Of a DNA stretch of 10,308 nucleotides, positions 1 to 6,760 are shown piece after piece. The stretch's first letter is position 1. Each line of letters begins with the position of its first letter. Location: UHGV virus genome UHGV-0120054. One strand, 5' to 3'. Both the position numbers and the translations under genes were made by a program. Below the pieces are notes generated by a model. It was not told the origin of the DNA. It saw only the letters and a list, made by a program, of their open reading frames with translations, and ran no database searches. The DNA is from a virus.

Positions 1-1
1 A

Positions 2-121
2 AGCCCAGGACTTACAGCAGATGCTGAACTCAATTATTACCGTCTACGAAGTGGAATCGACAGGATAACCGCGCAGGTTAACTACCTGCAGGAGTACATC
101 AGGACGCAATGCCTGAAATAA
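2..121 (+). CDS. 3' end of an upstream gene (partial, function unknown)
   Basis: Frame 2 is open from the window edge to TAA at 119-121 (…SPGLTADAELNYYRLRSGIDRITAQVNYLQEYIRTQCLK*). A second open frame overlaps it and ends at 66-68. Two intrinsic terminators follow. No family recognised. Confidence 0.3.
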   Translation, partial: SPGLTADAELNYYRLRSGIDRITAQVNYLQEYIRTQCLK

Positions 122-152
122 TTTTTTTGCAAATCACAAAGTCCATTTAATG

Positions 153-176
153 AGCCTCGCGATGCGGGGCTTTTTG
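153..176 (+). terminator. Rho-independent terminator (first of a tandem pair)
   Basis: GC-rich hairpin GCCTCGC-GATG-CGGGGC at 154-170, 6-7 bp stem with one G-U pair, followed directly by TTTTT at 171-175. Confidence 0.6.
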
Positions 177-182
177 CAATAA

Positions 183-207
183 ATGCGTACCGCAACGCAT
201 GTTTTTT
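183..207 (+). terminator. Rho-independent terminator (second of a tandem pair)
   Basis: Perfect 6-bp stem ATGCGT/ACGCAT at 183-188 and 195-200 with a 6-nt loop, followed by GTTTTTT at 201-207. Confidence 0.6.
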
Positions 208-322
208 ACACCGAACCTGCCCCTTTGGAATGGGCCTTTGAGGATACCAGTTAGTGCTGGCGAGCCTCGGTGGGCTGGTTTCCTGTGCGGCAAAGGTTCA
301 TTTCAAAGAGTAGGTACACGCT

Positions 323-820
323 ATGAAATCATTAACCCTCTTCAATCAACCAATTCGTATCGGTGAAGATGGCATGATCTGCCTCACTGATATGTGGAAA
401 GCCAGTGGTAAAAGTGAATCTGAATCGCCTTACCACTACCTGCGAAACAAGCAGACCAAAGAGTTCTTAGCCGAGCTGGAGAAAAACCACGAATCTGTGG
501 TTTTTACTGAGCGCGGTGTACACGGTGGAACATATGGCGGGAAGTTTGTTGCTTACGATTATGCGGCTTGGTTAAACCCCGGGTTCAAGTACGCGGCCTA
601 TAAAGTCCTCGATGACTACTTCACCGGAGAACTTCAGCATCGCAACAGCTTAAGTGCGCAGCTCAACATGAAATGTCATGAGTTTGACCAGAAGAAAGAC
701 ATGGCGAGCTTCTGCGGACAAGGGCTGGCAGCATGGCGCTATACGAAGCCAGTGTTGGTCGCTGAGATTAACTCCCTGGCTAACCAGTTGCAGATTACGA
801 TCCCCGGGCTTCCGGGATGA
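323..820 (+). CDS. KilA-N domain protein (possible antirepressor or DNA-binding regulator)
   Basis: 165-aa ORF. The N-terminal ~100 aa carry the KilA-N signature (LFNQPIRI…DGMICLTDMWKASGK…GTYGGKFVAYDYAAWLNPGFKYAAYKVLDDYF). Weak SD (AGGT) 7 nt upstream of the ATG. Confidence 0.8.
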   Translation: MKSLTLFNQPIRIGEDGMICLTDMWKASGKSESESPYHYLRNKQTKEFLAELEKNHESVVFTERGVHGGTYGGKFVAYDYAAWLNPGFKYAAYKVLDDYFTGELQHRNSLSAQLNMKCHEFDQKKDMASFCGQGLAAWRYTKPVLVAEINSLANQLQITIPGLPG

Positions 821-1074
821 GTGATCGTGTCATTGAATGCGCCTCCAGAGCGGGGCGTGACTTCTCAGAGTTCATGAAAGGTGAGAAGGGCATGATGGAA
901 GCATTGGCCTCGGTGGATGAGTTTGGCGAGCAGCTGCGCCTCAACGGCTGTGTCAATCATCACTTTGTTAGCTACATGATGCGGAACTCGATCATGCAGG
1001 CATTCATGGACATGGCAAAAGCCGAGAGGAAAGAAGAGCGCCGGCGTAAGCGAGCGGAAGCAAAAGCGAAGTAG
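817..1074 (+). CDS. hypothetical small protein with a strongly basic C-terminal tail, co-translated with the KilA-N gene
   Basis: 85-aa ORF whose ATG (817) overlaps the KilA-N stop (ATGA at 817-820). C-terminus is AKAERKEERRRKRAEAKAK. No family recognised. Confidence 0.5.
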   Translation: MSDRVIECASRAGRDFSEFMKGEKGMMEALASVDEFGEQLRLNGCVNHHFVSYMMRNSIMQAFMDMAKAERKEERRRKRAEAKAK

Positions 1075-1436
1075 CCATTACAAAGCCCATCTACGGGTGG
1101 GCTTGATAATGAAACCGGAGTTAATTTCTGGTCACTAATTAACGGCAGTACAGCGAAACAACCCAAGCCAGAAAGTGGGGAAATAACACTGGCAGCCACT
1201 GAAAGATGAACCTCCTGCCTGATGGCAAAAAAGATTCTTTGTGGTGGCGGACTGATGGAAAGACATCGGTTATTGCAGAGACCATTCAATGAGTGGTCTC
1301 GACAATGGCTTATACCCTACACGGGATAACTTAACTGATATCCCCACAAGCGGATAAAGAGATTCTCAATGTCAGGAATCTACTTTTAGTCCTAGTAATG
1401 ATGAACTAGATATCAGTTGAGTCGCTTGGGTGGTGA

Positions 1437-1673
1437 TTACGATTCTGCTTCAAACTCAGAAATTAGTTGATGAACACGTTCAGTATATGATGGGTTAGAA
1501 CCTAGAAACTCTTCCACTGTCTGAATGGTTTCATCACCCTCCCATTCAAAATGGCTCACAGGCGACGAATGACCAGCCCTGACTTGGTAGGAGCCATTGT
1601 CCAATTTGTCCAGGAATATATAAGTTTCATTATCATGAACTGTATTTCGGTAAAAAATTTGCTTTGAGTTCAT
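1437..1673 (-). CDS. hypothetical small acidic protein (moron, antisense to the late operon)
   Basis: 78-aa ORF on the minus strand with a good SD on that strand (AGAGGA, 8 nt before the ATG). Sits in a low-GC patch (about 25-45% GC in 60-bp blocks, against roughly 55% in the structural genes). Protein is net acidic. No family recognised. Confidence 0.55.
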   Translation of the reverse strand: MNSKQIFYRNTVHDNETYIFLDKLDNGSYQVRAGHSSPVSHFEWEGDETIQTVEEFLGSNPSYTERVHQLISEFEAES

Positions 1674-1697
1674 TAAAGAAATCCTCTAGAGAAAACT

Positions 1698-2249
1698 ATG
1701 GCACTCACCGACAAGCAAGAAATGTTCTGTCGCGAGTACCTCATCGATTTAAACGCCACGCAAGCGGCTATTCGGGCGGGGTACAGCGCAAAGACAGCTA
1801 ACCGTACCGCATCCGAAAACCTGTCAAAACCTGACATCAAGTTAAGAATCGCCGAACTGAAAGCGCAACGCAATGATCTTATTGGTATTAATGCAGAATA
1901 TGTACTTAATCGCCTTATTGAAATCGACCAGATGGATGTGCTCGACATTCTCCTGCAAAACGGTGAGCTAAAGCCCATTAAAGACTGGCCTAAGGTATGG
2001 CGCACAACGCTATCAGGAATGGATGTCGTGGAGATGGTATCCGCAGATAGCGCCGCACTTCTGAAGAAAATCAAATGGCCTGATAAGGTTAAAAACCTTG
2101 AGTTGCTTGGGCGTCATGTTTCTGTTCAGGCGTTTAAAGACAATGTCAAAAATGAAGTGACTGGTGCTGACGGAGGACCAGTCAGAACAGAAATTACCAA
2201 CTTAACGCCGGAGCAGGCTGCAGAGGCGTATAGAAAAATGATGGGCTAA
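1698..2249 (+). CDS. phage terminase small subunit (Terminase_2-like)
   Basis: 183-aa ORF. N-terminus [34 protein letters not shown]… matches the conserved HTH-like signature of this terminase small-subunit family. Lies immediately upstream of the large subunit. Confidence 0.8.
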
Positions 2250-2251
2250 GT

Positions 2252-3874
2252 ATGCCGTTACCATTCCCCTTCGATTTTAAACATCCTGATTACCAGATGG
2301 TTTTTGAATGGCGGATGGAACGCCTACAACGCATTCGCCAGAATCCTGAAATATTGCCTGCACTAAAACAGTTTTACCGAACCAATCCGGCTCAGTTCAT
2401 CATCGACTGGGGCATGACAACGGACCCGCGTAATATTGATTATGGCCTGCCGGTGACCATTCCGTTTTTACTCTTCCCTAAGCAGGAGGAGTGGATCCAC
2501 TGGATTATGGAACGCTGGAGTAATCGGGAGAATGGTATTACCGAAAAATCCCGTGAAATGGGGCTCAGTTGGACCGCGATCGGGCTGGCCTGCTCGCTTT
2601 GTCTCTTCAACAAAGAAATGGTTATCGGTTTCGGCTCCCGTAAAGAGGAATACGTCGACAGCACCGGTGACCCGAAGGCGCTGTTCTGGAAGGCGCGCAA
2701 GTTCGTGGAAACACTACCTGTAGAGTTTCGCGGTTCGTGGAGCGAGAAGAAGCACGCGCCATATATGCGTGTTGAGTTTCCTGAAACTGGTGCCGTTATC
2801 AAAGGCGAGGCTGGCGATAATATTGGTCGTGGTGACCGTACCACGCTTTATCTGGTTGATGAGGCTGCATTCCTTCAGCGTCCTCTGCTGATTGATGCGG
2901 CGTTGTCACAAACGACGCGTTGCCGTATCGACCTGAGTTCGGTTAACGGCATGGCGAACCCGTTCGCGCAGAAGCGTCACGGCGGGAAGATACCGGTATT
3001 CACATTCCACTGGCGGGATGATCCTCGCAAGGATGAAGAGTGGTATCGCAGGGAATGCGAGAAAATCGATAATCCGGTGGTGGTGGCACAGGAACTTGAT
3101 CTGAACTACAGCGCATCAGCGGAAGGCGTCCTGATTCCATCCGAATGGGTACAGGCTGCCGTTGATGCGCATATCAAACTGGGTATCCAGCCAACAGGCA
3201 AACGACTTGGCGCGATGGATGTCGCCGACGAAGGCAGGGACAAAAATGCCTTTTCCACCCGTCATGGCTTCCTCCTGGAGAATGTGCGGGAATGGTCCGG
3301 GGTGGGCAGCGACATTTATCAGTCCGTCGAGAAGGTCTTCGGCTTTTGCGAACAGGACAATCTTGATGAGTTTCGCTTTGACGAGGACGGGCTGGGCGCT
3401 GGCGTTCGCGGCGATGCACGCGCTATCAACGAACTGCGTAACGCTGCGCGCCGACCGTCAATACTCGCTACACCGTTTCGAGGTAGTGGCGCGGTATTTG
3501 ATCCGGATGATGAAGCTGTTCGCGGGGACAACGGGCAAGCCGCACGTCTGAACAAGGACTTCTTCGCTAACGCCAAAGCCCAGAGCTGGTGGCGGTTACG
3601 TAAACTTTTTCAGAATACCTGGCGCGCCGTGGTTGAAGGTATGGCTTACAACCCAGACGAAATCATCTCAATCAGCAGTAGCATGGCACTCAAAGATAAA
3701 CTCATCATCGAGCTTTCGCAGCCGACCTATTCCATTAATGGTGTGGGAAAAATCGTTATTGATAAACAGCCTGATGGAACCCGATCACCAAACCTTGCTG
3801 ACTCGGTGATGATCAACTATGCCCCAATGAATTCAGCCCTGAACATCTGGGAGCTGCTAGGGAGACAGGCCTGA
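2252..3874 (+). CDS. phage terminase large subunit (ATPase plus nuclease)
   Basis: 540-aa ORF. Deviant P-loop KSREMGLS (lambda gpA-like K-S-x-R-x-G-x-S, recalled from memory). Walker [12 protein letters not shown]-terminal RNase-H-like nuclease motifs [25 protein letters not shown] and [10 protein letters not shown]. Confidence 0.85.
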
Positions 3875-4392
3875 TGGCACGAAACAAGCAATCCTCTCAG
3901 CGAACGGCACAGGCCACCGCTGACGGCTACGAGAACTTCGTCGCCCGCGTTGGGATGAGCTCATTGCAGGAGCGCCGCTTACGGCTGCCGATGCGCCGGA
4001 TACTGGACATTATGCACCGCTCGGAACTCGGTAAGCCGCTGCCGGACGATTTCACGTTTGAGTTTAACCCGCTATGGCAAATGTCTGACGTTGACCGCTC
4101 AACGGTGGCCGTAAACACCACCAACGCGATCAGCACCGCGCTGGGCGACGGATTGATGACGCGTAAGGCGGCGATGACCGACCTGCGAGAAAACTCTGAC
4201 GTCACCGGCATCGGGGCATCCATTACCGACGAGGACGTAGAGAATGCCGAAGACGAAGCGCCGCCAGGCATCGGCGAACTTGGCGACAAACCGCCAGAGT
4301 CGCCAGGCGGAGATCCGATATCGAACGAGCCTACGGCAGATAGCGCGGGCGGTCGGGGATATCGTAAATGGGCGCTACGATGGTTCAAATGA
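3874..4392 (+). CDS. hypothetical protein in the position expected for the portal gene; possibly a portal remnant
   Basis: 172-aa ORF. ATG overlaps the terminase stop (TGATG at 3872-3876). Acidic C-terminal region (TDEDVENAEDEAPPG). Far too short for a portal (typically over 400 aa). The last 149 nt overlap the next gene in another frame, where that gene's frame has the higher third-position GC. Confidence 0.4.
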   Translation: MARNKQSSQRTAQATADGYENFVARVGMSSLQERRLRLPMRRILDIMHRSELGKPLPDDFTFEFNPLWQMSDVDRSTVAVNTTNAISTALGDGLMTRKAAMTDLRENSDVTGIGASITDEDVENAEDEAPPGIGELGDKPPESPGGDPISNEPTADSAGGRGYRKWALRWFK

Positions 4393-5017
4393 TAGCGTTA
4401 CCGAAATAATGGATGCGCTGGAGCGCTACAGCGAAATCATCACCCCCTGGGCGACGAAGGTTGCTGAGAACTTTACCGCCGACATTGCACGCCAGAATGA
4501 AAAGCAGTGGCGTCAGCACAGCCGGAACATCAGCGCAGAGCTGCGCAACATGGTCGACCGCGCCCCGGTAGGCCAGGTGATGAAATCCATCGTCGCCGAG
4601 CAAATTAAGTACATCAAGTCACTGCCTCTTGAGGCCGCCGATCGGGTGTATGACATTCAGAACAAGGCCATCGAGGCCGTTGTGTCTGGTGGCCGCGCTG
4701 AACCATTCGCGAAAGAGATAGCAGCGTCCGGTGACGTGTCACGCTCACGAGCGAACCTTATCGCCCGTACCGAGCTTGGACGTGCAACCGGCGCGCTGGA
4801 TCAGGCGCGTGCGCTGTCAATCGGCTCGAATGGTTATATCTGGCGTACAGCCGAAGATGGCGACGTCCGGCATTCTCATCGGGAGATGGAAGGTAAGTTT
4901 GTCGAATGGGGCAAACCTCCAACGCTTGATGGCATGACCGGTCACGCTGGCGAGCTCCCGAATTGTCGCTGTTATAAAGAAATCGTTTTTCCCAACCCTC
5001 ATTCTTATCTCGCCTGA
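4244..5017 (+). CDS. phage head morphogenesis protein, Mu F / SPP1 gp7 family
   Basis: 257-aa ORF. Hallmark C-terminal motifs LIARTELGRA … WRTAEDGDVRHSHREMEG … PNCRCY. SD GAGGA at 4231-4235, 8 nt before the ATG. The frame opens only one codon upstream (TAG 4238-4240). Alternative downstream start at 4409. Confidence 0.8.
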   Translation: MPKTKRRQASANLATNRQSRQAEIRYRTSLRQIARAVGDIVNGRYDGSNDSVTEIMDALERYSEIITPWATKVAENFTADIARQNEKQWRQHSRNISAELRNMVDRAPVGQVMKSIVAEQIKYIKSLPLEAADRVYDIQNKAIEAVVSGGRAEPFAKEIAASGDVSRSRANLIARTELGRATGALDQARALSIGSNGYIWRTAEDGDVRHSHREMEGKFVEWGKPPTLDGMTGHAGELPNCRCYKEIVFPNPHSYLA

Positions 5018-5031
5018 ATCGCAGGTAAACC

Positions 5032-6252
5032 ATGAAATATTTTTTCAATACCCGGCTGGGGGAAACCCGCTATCAGCTGGCTGACGGCTCGCTGCTGTGC
5101 AAAGACGTGCCGATAGGTCGAACGGGTAAGCAGCTCTACGGCGCTGCCGATCTGCCAAACCTCAAACCCGACAAGCTCGGTGAGATAGTCGTAACGCGTT
5201 CTCCTGAGCAGGTATTCCATCCGGCCACGCTCGCCTCATTCGAAGGGATGAGCATCACGATCCTGCATCCTGAAGATGAAAACGGGAATGTGCGGCTGGT
5301 AAATCCCGAGAACTGGAAAGAGCTTGCTGTCGGGCATCTTCAGAATGTGCGGCGCGGGACGGGTGACCAGTCTGATTTGATGCTGGCTGACCTTATCGTC
5401 AAAGACGAAAACGCCATTCAGCTTATCGAAGATGGCCTGCGTGAAGTGTCGTGCGGCTATGACGCGGAGTACGAGCAGACCGAGCCAGGTAAAGCCGAGC
5501 AGGTCGATATTACCGGAAACCATGTGGCTCTTGTCCCCAAAGGCAGAGCCGGAAATCGTTGTGCAATTGGAGACAGAGACACAATGGCAAATCAAAAGAA
5601 AAACTGGTGGAACCGCATGCGTGCAGCCATCAAGACAGGAGATGCCGACACCATGAACGAACTGGTGGAGTCGGCTCCCGCATCGGTTACAGGAGATGAG
5701 GGGGATTTGCCGCAGGGCGTTAATCTCAACATCAACCTGTCCCCGCAGCAACCACTACCGGACAAAGCACCAGAGATGGGTGGAGGTCCAACCGGCGACA
5801 GTGATGATGACCTCAAAACATTACTGAAAGCCCTGCTGGCTAAGCTGGAAGGAAATGCGACGGGCGATAACGACAATAATCCTGACGATAATCCGACCGG
5901 TGACGGCGAGGACTATGAAGAGGAAACCACGATTACTGGTGACTCAGCCTGGCGTGCCGAAGTTATCGTTCCGGGTATCGATCTGAGCCGTAAGATGAAA
6001 CCGACCGCGTTCAAACGCGAGGTTCTGGCTTCTGCTGACAAAACGCTGGTTCGCCAGATAGTCGGTGATGCGGATATCCGCAAATTACCGAAACAATCGG
6101 TCAACATGGCGTTTAATGCCGTGTCAGAGATTGCCAAAGGGCGAAACACCCGTACCACCATGGGCGATGCACAACGCCAAAATATGGGCATGACCAGCAT
6201 CGCTTCCCTGAACAAACAAAACGCCGAATTCTGGTCTAACCGCAAAGGATAA
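5032..6252 (+). CDS. putative head scaffold or maturation protein (DUF2213-like)
   Basis: 406-aa ORF directly after the MuF gene. Conserved N-terminal half followed by a long acidic low-complexity segment (GDSDDDLK…GDNDNNPDDNPTGDGEDYEEE). Family assignment is from memory of MuF/DUF2213/capsid head modules. Confidence 0.55.
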   Translation: MKYFFNTRLGETRYQLADGSLLCKDVPIGRTGKQLYGAADLPNLKPDKLGEIVVTRSPEQVFHPATLASFEGMSITILHPEDENGNVRLVNPENWKELAVGHLQNVRRGTGDQSDLMLADLIVKDENAIQLIEDGLREVSCGYDAEYEQTEPGKAEQVDITGNHVALVPKGRAGNRCAIGDRDTMANQKKNWWNRMRAAIKTGDADTMNELVESAPASVTGDEGDLPQGVNLNINLSPQQPLPDKAPEMGGGPTGDSDDDLKTLLKALLAKLEGNATGDNDNNPDDNPTGDGEDYEEETTITGDSAWRAEVIVPGIDLSRKMKPTAFKREVLASADKTLVRQIVGDADIRKLPKQSVNMAFNAVSEIAKGRNTRTTMGDAQRQNMGMTSIASLNKQNAEFWSNRKG

Positions 6253-6256
6253 TCCA

Positions 6257-6760
6257 ATGACTGCATATCTGTACCGGATGCCTGTTGGCATTGCCGGGGC
6301 TGTCTCTCGCCCGCAGGACTTAACCGTCGAACCGGTGGTCCTTAAATCCGATAACGCCTTCGCTGCCTATGGGCTGGCTGGTAAATACGATGCTGACGGT
6401 TTTTTCGTACCGCTGGCAGATGGTGATACCGCAGACAAGGTGAAGGGGATCTACGTGCGCCCTTATCCGACCACGTCGCAGCCGGACATGGTTCGCCAGG
6501 TGGGGAGTGGCAAGAACTTCCCGGGAGACGCCATGAAGCGTGGCTACGTGACCGTTAATCTCGGTTCTGATTTTGATGCCAGCACCATCAAAAAAGGCGA
6601 CCCGGTATACGTTGTCGTCTCCGCTGATGAATCCATCAAAGTGCCGCTGGGTGGATTCATGTCCACGTCAGTCAGTGGCAAAAATGTGGTGCTGACCAAC
6701 GCTGAATTCACAGGTGCCGGTGATGCTAACGGCAATGCAGAAATTTCCTGGAAGATTTAA
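6257..6760 (+). CDS. putative small head structural or decoration protein
   Basis: 167-aa ORF with SD AGGA, lying between the scaffold-like gene and the capsid gene. Gly/Val-rich, beta-rich-looking sequence. Confidence 0.45.
   Translation: MTAYLYRMPVGIAGAVSRPQDLTVEPVVLKSDNAFAAYGLAGKYDADGFFVPLADGDTADKVKGIYVRPYPTTSQPDMVRQVGSGKNFPGDAMKRGYVTVNLGSDFDASTIKKGDPVYVVVSADESIKVPLGGFMSTSVSGKNVVLTNAEFTGAGDANGNAEISWKI

Follow-up and report, generated by a model that had tools for sequence, protein, structure and literature searches.

This work concerns a stretch of 10,308 nucleotides of the virus genome UHGV-0120054 (the window) and, within it, ORF78, an open reading frame (ORF) of 78 amino acids (aa) on the minus strand (1437-1673), which faces away from terS, the gene for the small terminase subunit. 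Comparison with related prophages shows ORF78 to be a moron located in a hypervariable, backward-facing slot of E. coli and Salmonella prophages. The moron concept is that of Hendrix and colleagues. According to the alignments, the slot is that of pid in phage P22, and as such it was already known. Our explanation is that a moron in the pid slot is transcribed from a promoter inside terS and encodes a small binding protein; taken as a whole, we consider it rather probable.

ORF78 is an exchangeable accessory gene

The coordinates agree with an earlier note on this DNA, which had described a minus-strand ORF of 78 aa with a strong Shine-Dalgarno sequence (SD), 24 nt from the divergent terS start. 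ORF78 starts with an ATG (CAT at 1671-1673), preceded at 8 nt by the SD AGAGGA (1682-1687, minus strand, read from the sequence), and 24 nt separate it from the terS ATG at 1698. This divergent spacer (1674-1697) contains the SDs of ORF78 and terS back to back, as the near-palindrome CTCTAGAG. The encoded protein has 14 D/E and 5 K/R residues, a net charge of -9 and an isoelectric point (pI) of 4.6. It had been called acidic and without a recognised family, and indeed it matched nothing in Pfam (E up to 1), NCBIfam, PHROGs or PADLOC. In RefSeq, the identical ORF of other E. coli genomes is the hypothetical protein WP_047672399.1. The right flank of the slot is terS (1698-2249, plus strand), a Terminase_2 small subunit (Pfam, 6.8e-40).

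ORF78 is part of a cassette (1345-1697, minus strand) that also takes in the spacer and about 90 nt 3' of the gene, and that is missing from empty-site relatives. Its left flank and recombination anchor (1075-1344) contains no convincing ORF and is common to HK97, HK022, P22 and many E. coli prophages. The right anchor is the 5' block of a terS type that we call type A (1698-1787, plus strand), which also contains part of the predicted ORF78 leader. Homology to two relatives, L003 and L175, breaks off at window position 1344 and resumes in terS, at the ATG (1698) in L003 and at terS nt 7, with about 75% identity, in L175. By alignment, the right junction of the cassette is the terS ATG and the left one falls within 1344-1383. 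In L175 the site is empty, 28 nt lying between the end of the left flank (window 1133-1344) and the terS ATG. Prophages with flanks 96-98% identical carry different minus-strand genes in the slot, such as two ORFs of 72 and 55 aa in strain ETEC1702, or a DUF2158/YodC gene and a DUF6953 gene in strain 573. The earlier note had suggested looking for presence or absence of the gene in otherwise identical prophages; prophages whose flanks are near-identical hold other antisense genes (L003, L004), and the site is empty in L175.

The composition of the insert is foreign to its surroundings. ORF78 has 39.2% GC and the insert (1345-1697) 38.8%, against 52.8% for terL and a window mean of 51%; the insert is the 353-nt stretch of lowest GC in the window, and only 0.2% of such stretches are equally low. 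The low-GC patch reported earlier was approximately right, 50-nt windows over 1290-1700 ranging from 26 to 56%, the background being 51% and not the 55% assumed there. The reading of ORF78 as a moron is thus borne out by the empty site, the unrelated genes between the same flanks, the foreign composition and the lack of a described family. Moreover, the ORF78 cassette is 99-99.7% identical across prophages whose upstream modules differ (KilA-N, Rha, another lysis cassette). Lysogens that have it include E. coli EH08-18-36 and 30EVA2. As it is near-identical beside different modules, it must move by recombination, and the genome comparisons show that cargo is exchanged among prophages at the two conserved flanks.

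For a survey of the slot, viral contigs were scanned with the 43 nt that open the window terS, and antisense ORFs of at least 40 aa were recorded. Such an ORF was present in 123 of 125 usable type-A loci, and in most of them 14-32 nt separate its start from the terS ATG. The first-position cargo proteins fell into 33 unrelated clusters, ORF78 among them. When terS genes were re-selected by their C-terminal 124 residues alone, as a control set, adjacent antisense cargo was found at 50 of 51 type-A loci and at none of 22 readable type-B/C loci, whose 5' ends are coded differently; the empty-site L175 belongs to the latter. The compact layout with two SDs recurs in 97 distinct junctions, most of them with an SD-like AGG/GGAG before the cargo start. 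Since the spacer is filled by the two back-to-back SDs, the cargo promoter does not lie there. Codons 1-30 of terS are near-invariant as DNA in a diverse set of terS genes (third-position diversity 0.04-0.13, against 0.35-0.69 later), a set chosen by the first 43 nt and hence open to selection bias in this very region; among close relatives no extra 5' conservation was seen. The change in diversity appears to mark a sharp mosaic boundary after the first ~30 terS codons.

ORF78 is also, by its pattern of substitutions, shown to be a genuine protein-coding accessory gene under purifying selection. A protein search of 5.8 billion sequences returned 13 relatives, and HMMER, run exhaustively over 1.84 billion representatives, gave nine true relatives, one of them frameshifted, plus three spurious repeat proteins. 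After profile searching the family comprises 39 clusters, all unnamed, from E. coli, Citrobacter, Enterobacter, Serratia, Providencia, Aeromonas and metagenomes (Enterobacterales plus Aeromonas). No relative was found in a scan of species-representative genomes, and searches of the Protein Data Bank (PDB) sequences with ORF78 and with the family profile gave chance matches only. Homologues keep a length of 76-83 aa at 35-97% identity across genera, together with the motifs YIFLD, R32-x-G34, W44, EFL and P-x-Y followed by an EFE tail. They are AT-rich in every host (35-43% GC) and remain acidic (pI 4.2-5.3, median net charge -7). Against a 79%-identical homologue, ORF78 shows a non-synonymous divergence (dN) of 0.10 and a synonymous divergence (dS) of 1.9, a ratio of 0.05, and more distant pairs are saturated at synonymous sites; for these two reasons ORF78 is not a chance ORF. 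The protein is thus kept across relatives, a point on which the earlier note had made its proposal depend.

A functionless ORF78, neutral for host and phage and kept as a hitch-hiker by frequent recombination at the flanks, would fit the rarity of the gene, found in 12 of 5,426 complete E. coli genomes (the terS 5' block is in 202) and in 0 of 50,697 phage records and 0 of 72,556 plasmids, as well as the existence of disrupted copies. It is hard to reconcile with the low dN/dS, with the length and motifs kept across genera, with a confident and compact structural model, and with an ORF78 that stays intact although little of the portal gene is left in the prophage. We regard neutrality as highly improbable.

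Some further observations concern the flanks. With the left flank in the query (region 1080-1760), megablast matched 2,377 of 5,426 E. coli genomes, mostly partially; positions 1080-1344 are 96-99% identical to HK97, HK022 and mEp235, and the flank holds a hairpin (1076-1111) and a near-palindrome (1272-1306). L010 has another antisense cargo gene (109 aa) beyond an ORF78 homologue and a putative secreted protein of 195 aa, and immediately upstream of this second gene stands a stub of 43 nt from the 5' end of terS (5945-5987). This stub suggests that cassettes can stack by recombination within the terS block. Only one type-A terS of the control set lacks antisense cargo, that of L143/L027 (IMGVR_UViG_2579778650_000002). 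It retains just the SD and ATG of a C4 cargo gene (cat aatttcctcaggtatatca ATG), and these remains mark it as the product of a deletion and not as a virgin site.

The pid slot and a predicted promoter within terS

On the two sides of pid, P22 aligns with the window at 1132-1316 (94% identity), 1699-1779 (95%) and 1867-1948 (76%). The terS 5' block is found in P22 at 40745-40825 (95%); it is unannotated in the P22 record and overlaps 'pid' in BTP1. In P22, pid lies on the minus strand and adjoins a decayed type-A terS with a GTG start, a 3-nt and a 1-nt deletion and a switch of frame. A Pid homologue, 55% identical, stands beside an intact type-A terS in L137, and this arrangement is presumably the ancestral one. 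Between ORF78 and Pid themselves, BLASTP gave no alignment at E values up to 100.

It has been described that pid is an ORFan of 86 aa on a genuine moron locus, whose product derepresses the host dgo operon in phage-carrier cells (Cenens 2013, PMC3573128). The pid promoter is weak and constitutive, with a transcription start site (TSS) 174 nt upstream of the pid ATG and 7 nt past the -10 box; this box, AATCCT, was confirmed by up-mutations, and the proximal 244 nt are without a promoter (Wolput 2022, PMC8835761). In the BTP1 lysogen, pid is expressed at more than 100 transcripts per million and is one of the five prophage genes with the highest expression (Owen et al., PMC7067206). Terminase is not mentioned in these three papers (PMC3573128, PMC8835761, PMC7067206). 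In P22 (NC_002371.2, nt 40744-41014; L223, 1500-1770), we observe that the pid promoter and the 'exceptionally long' 174-nt 5' untranslated region lie within the frameshifted terS remnant.

Both pid and ORF78 have the same left flank, on the lysis/rha side, and type-A terS sequence, run antisense, and are inserts where related phages carry nothing or another gene. Their products are similar in size (86 and 78 aa), acidic (pI 4.7 and 4.6) and ORFans, and both genes have a promoter and a long leader at the homologous position of terS, those of ORF78 being predicted. The two loci differ in other respects. Pid looks helix-rich by eye from its sequence, whereas ORF78 is predicted to be mostly beta. 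The P22 terS remnant has been replaced by the gp3 packaging module, whereas terS is intact in the window, so that the predicted ORF78 leader would be antisense to a working gene. An intrinsic terminator follows pid, but none was found for ORF78. Finally, the target of Pid is the repressor of the dgo operon, which cannot be assumed for ORF78.

The promoter proposed for ORF78 is transferred from P22. Its -10 box would be GATTCT (1850-1845, minus strand), at the position homologous to the mapped Pribnow box AATCCT of Ppid, and its -35 box TTGCGT (1873-1868, minus strand), homologous to a TTGCTT that by our own reading lies 17 nt upstream of the Ppid -10. Transferring the P22 TSS by alignment gives a start near 1838 and a predicted 5' leader of about 165 nt (1674-1838, minus strand), complementary to the terS ribosome binding site (RBS) and to terS nt 1-141. 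A promoter within the terS coding sequence is what the earlier note had expected, and homology to the mapped pid promoter supports it as a prediction for ORF78. We hypothesize that this weak sigma-70 promoter would drive ORF78 independently of the late operon, and that the gene would be expressed in lysogens and in cells with unintegrated phage DNA, scaling with copy number, as reported for pid.

It could also be that the active product is the RNA: a leader antisense to the terS start might silence leaky terS expression or be silenced by the late mRNA, the ORF being a passenger. Over the terS RBS and nt 1-141 the predicted leader shows full complementarity, it would be common to every cargo of the slot, and antisense RNAs with exclusion roles are known from the related prophage BTP1 (PMC7067206). 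However, strong purifying selection acts on the ORF78 protein, the sequence of ORF78 is kept without an adjacent type-A terS in Serratia, Providencia and Aeromonas, and P22 retains pid and its leader even though the terS to be targeted is a pseudogene. An RNA as the active product therefore seems very unlikely to us.

Other signals were considered around the terS start. An extended -10 (TGcCATAgT) across the terS start codon was rejected, because the bases after CAT are not kept as a -10 in the 97 junctions; the conserved element at this place is the terS SD. A sigma-54-like TGGCAC noticed by eye at the terS start lacks a -12 element. Rfam gave nothing meaningful over positions 1-3000.

Predicted fold and possible action of ORF78

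The other cargo gives some indication of what the slot is used for. Most of the 33 families have no match in Pfam or PADLOC. Cluster C6 (L045, L060, L112 and others; 181-217 aa) carries an RxxxxH motif (LRNNLAH) and matches HepS (E 1.3e-6 to PDB 9oij), a validated single-protein abortive-infection HEPN nuclease of prophage Gifsy-1 (PMC13043305). Cargo for lysogenic conversion or defence at this boundary had been suggested in the earlier note, and a slot that also holds Pid and HepS-like proteins fits this suggestion. Because Pid and a HepS relative are among the cargo, the genes in the slot would be expressed in lysogeny and serve to modify the host or to combat other phages. By eye, cluster C4 (182 aa) shows an ADP-ribosyltransferase-like pattern (YRG ... 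TTD ... ENEF) and cluster C1 (123-150 aa) a PD-(D/E)xK-like one (GEY..A ... DIIAT ... IQVK); neither cluster has a match in Pfam, PADLOC or the PDB sequences.

Further information about the ORF78 protein came from two AlphaFold models, with 10 and 33 sequences as input, which have the same topology and a mean predicted local distance difference test (pLDDT) score of 81 and 86. Four antiparallel strands (2-10, 16-23, 29-40, 43-52) are predicted, followed by helices at 53-59 and 61-77. When the model was compared with the PDB by Foldseek, Borrelia Pur-alpha came first (probability 1.0, E 1e-2, template modeling score ~0.58), and the other structural matches included MRP2 and PC4-like proteins, also of nucleic-acid-binding folds. 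The same fold class includes the acidic proteins Mam33/p32 and SsgA, which do not bind nucleic acids. Among the predicted viral structures of BFVD the matches were weak (E 3.8e-3 or worse) and nearly all uncharacterised, none of them having a characterised function.

PUR repeat/Whirly proteins (Borrelia Pur-alpha 3n8b and 3nm7, Drosophila 3k44) have four strands and then a helix, as predicted for ORF78, and a single repeat of about 75 residues. ORF78 differs from them in being acidic, not basic, and in having no sequence-profile relation: it matched no Pfam PUR or DUF3276 family at E up to 1, and its family profile found no PUR protein among the PDB sequences. In addition, the protein has no signal peptide or membrane segment. 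It also lacks a catalytic motif, so it would most likely act stoichiometrically. Structure prediction, which the earlier note had proposed as a check, gave a PUR/Whirly-like fold; no family could be named by sequence, the note too having recognised none, and a similarity to DNA mimics did not appear. We conclude from the models that ORF78 is probably a small binding module, and we do not file it as a member of the PUR family.

A literal reading of the structural matches would make ORF78 a true PUR/Whirly binder of single-stranded DNA or RNA, acting on phage or host nucleic acid such as replication intermediates or a specific mRNA. The best matches (Pur-alpha, MRP2, PC4-like) are indeed nucleic-acid-binding folds, and an invariant R32-x-G34 as well as conserved Y8, F20, W44 and K4 lie on predicted strands. 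Yet a pI of 4.6 and a family median net charge of -7 argue against generic nucleic-acid binding, and the missing Pfam PUR or DUF3276 match and the presence of Mam33/p32 and SsgA in the same fold class also speak against this reading. We think that such direct binding is rather unlikely.

The acidity had also led to the proposal of a DNA mimic, that is, an anti-restriction or anti-defence protein expressed on phage entry that occupies the DNA site of a defence enzyme. ORF78 is small, soluble, non-enzymatic and acidic, its acidity is kept in the family, and a constitutive promoter outside the control of the prophage repressor could fire on incoming DNA, as that of pid does in carrier cells. However, no sequence or structural similarity was found to a known mimic (Ocr, ArdA and similar), the fold being PUR/Whirly-like, and a net charge of -9 is ordinary in this slot, where most of the 33 families have a pI below ~5.5 and Pid one of 4.7. 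Besides, the proposed promoter is a weak one that belongs to the late region rather than to an early operon, and the known slot neighbours are a modulator of a host regulator (Pid) and a relative of an abortive-infection nuclease (HepS-like), not anti-defence proteins. The mimic proposal was thus not borne out, and we judge it unlikely.

We therefore return to a small binding protein expressed from the pid slot. Judging from the models, the ORF78 product may be a small, soluble, acidic PUR/Whirly-like protein, possibly dimeric; solved single-repeat PUR-type proteins pair into dimers. It would bind a macromolecule of the host or of a rival phage, which would be a protein that binds nucleic acids or else itself a single-stranded nucleic acid, and the effect could be an altered host regulation, as with Pid and the dgo repressor, or a block on a competing phage.

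Several points weigh against this explanation. The proposed promoter matches the consensus at 3 of 6 positions in each hexamer, and stringent and relaxed sigma-70 scans over 1000-2300 found no good promoter on the minus strand. Its elements also encode conserved terS residues, so that their conservation among 123 distinct type-A terS genes (TTGC.. in 107, a 17-nt spacer in 122, xATxCT in 98) is not independent evidence. Downstream of ORF78 there is no clear intrinsic terminator, and the 3' region does not fold significantly (z of -1.1). The gene is dispensable in places, being interrupted by an IS3 element in one genome and truncated or frameshifted elsewhere. The transcript and TSS of ORF78 are predicted from the homologous pid promoter, its protein is a predicted one, and its function is argued, more weakly, from context and analogy.

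Related systems and other contexts

Lambda bor-type morons resemble ORF78 in lying downstream of the lysis genes, in running antisense to the late operon and in their atypical composition; they have their own promoter, as predicted for ORF78, and are dispensable for phage growth. Lambda Bor has a signal peptide and is a lipoprotein of the outer membrane. Its sequence is unrelated to that of ORF78, which has neither a signal peptide nor a membrane segment. Accessory and defence hotspots have been described in P2 and P4 prophages (Rousset 2022, PMC9122126). Like the pid slot, they occupy a fixed position between conserved phage genes and hold many unrelated, mostly uncharacterised cargoes. The pid slot differs from them in phage group and position, and its cargo genes, which directly adjoin terS, run antisense to the late operon. 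With respect to defence hotspots, ORF78 matches no PADLOC model, and one cargo family of the slot is a HepS relative. In the literature on accessory-gene hotspots we found no description of the pid slot.

It is tempting to propose that this is an undescribed hotspot with at least 33 cargo families that share one terS-embedded promoter and leader, and that ORF78 is a new PUR-fold inhibitor in phage-phage or phage-host conflict; this broader claim we hold only tentatively. If the cargo families do share a leader embedded in terS, the 174-nt leader of pid would be a relic of terS. By itself, ORF78 would be one more uncharacterised prophage ORFan, but its context gives a usable handle: pid is one of the few ORFan morons with mapped transcription, and ORF78 sits in the same slot. 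The general pattern may even outweigh ORF78 in value. A layout rule, with promoter and leader in terS and back-to-back RBSs, could serve to harvest dozens of lysogeny-expressed genes from E. coli and Salmonella prophages, and the layout raises a testable link between accessory-gene expression and the control of packaging genes.

The prophage of the window is probably defective, because its portal gene is truncated, and ORF78 is nevertheless intact. At 3874-4392 (junction near 3952-3957), about 949 bp of the near-identical prophage L001 are missing, leaving a portal remnant of 172 aa in place of the 488-aa DUF1073 portal of L001. In E. coli 23CRST013 (L006, 3300-4513), an IS3-family element lies within the ORF78 cassette and parts it from terS. 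Truncated or frameshifted ORF78 variants are P0010, P0011 and P0013.

Homologues of ORF78 are found antisense, 24-27 nt from a Terminase_2 terS, in phages with different large terminases and portals. In Serratia, a homologue is antisense between the lysis genes and a Nu1/GpA terminase, and in Providencia between rha and a P22-type gp3 module. The Serratia aquatilis homologue (L220, 2663-3568) lies about 430 nt downstream of a BstA_C-domain gene, the pair being at the prophage edge beside tail-fibre genes; BstA is an abortive-infection protein of prophages. Another homologue is near an integrase. In Aeromonas, a homologue is followed by an Ea47-like gene, and this pair, AT-rich in L012, makes up a two-gene cassette at two chromosomal sites (L012, L013); our literature search on Ea47 found no known function. 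Beyond this Ea47-like gene in the two Aeromonas loci, no gene recurs beside ORF78 homologues, and for lack of a recurrent neighbour we think that ORF78 acts alone. The cassette of L012 (Aeromonas dhakensis) is flanked by the direct repeat GGTGTCCCAGATTTTCT at 4954-4970 and 6303-6319, which is exact over 17 nt and extends to ~23 nt with mismatches.

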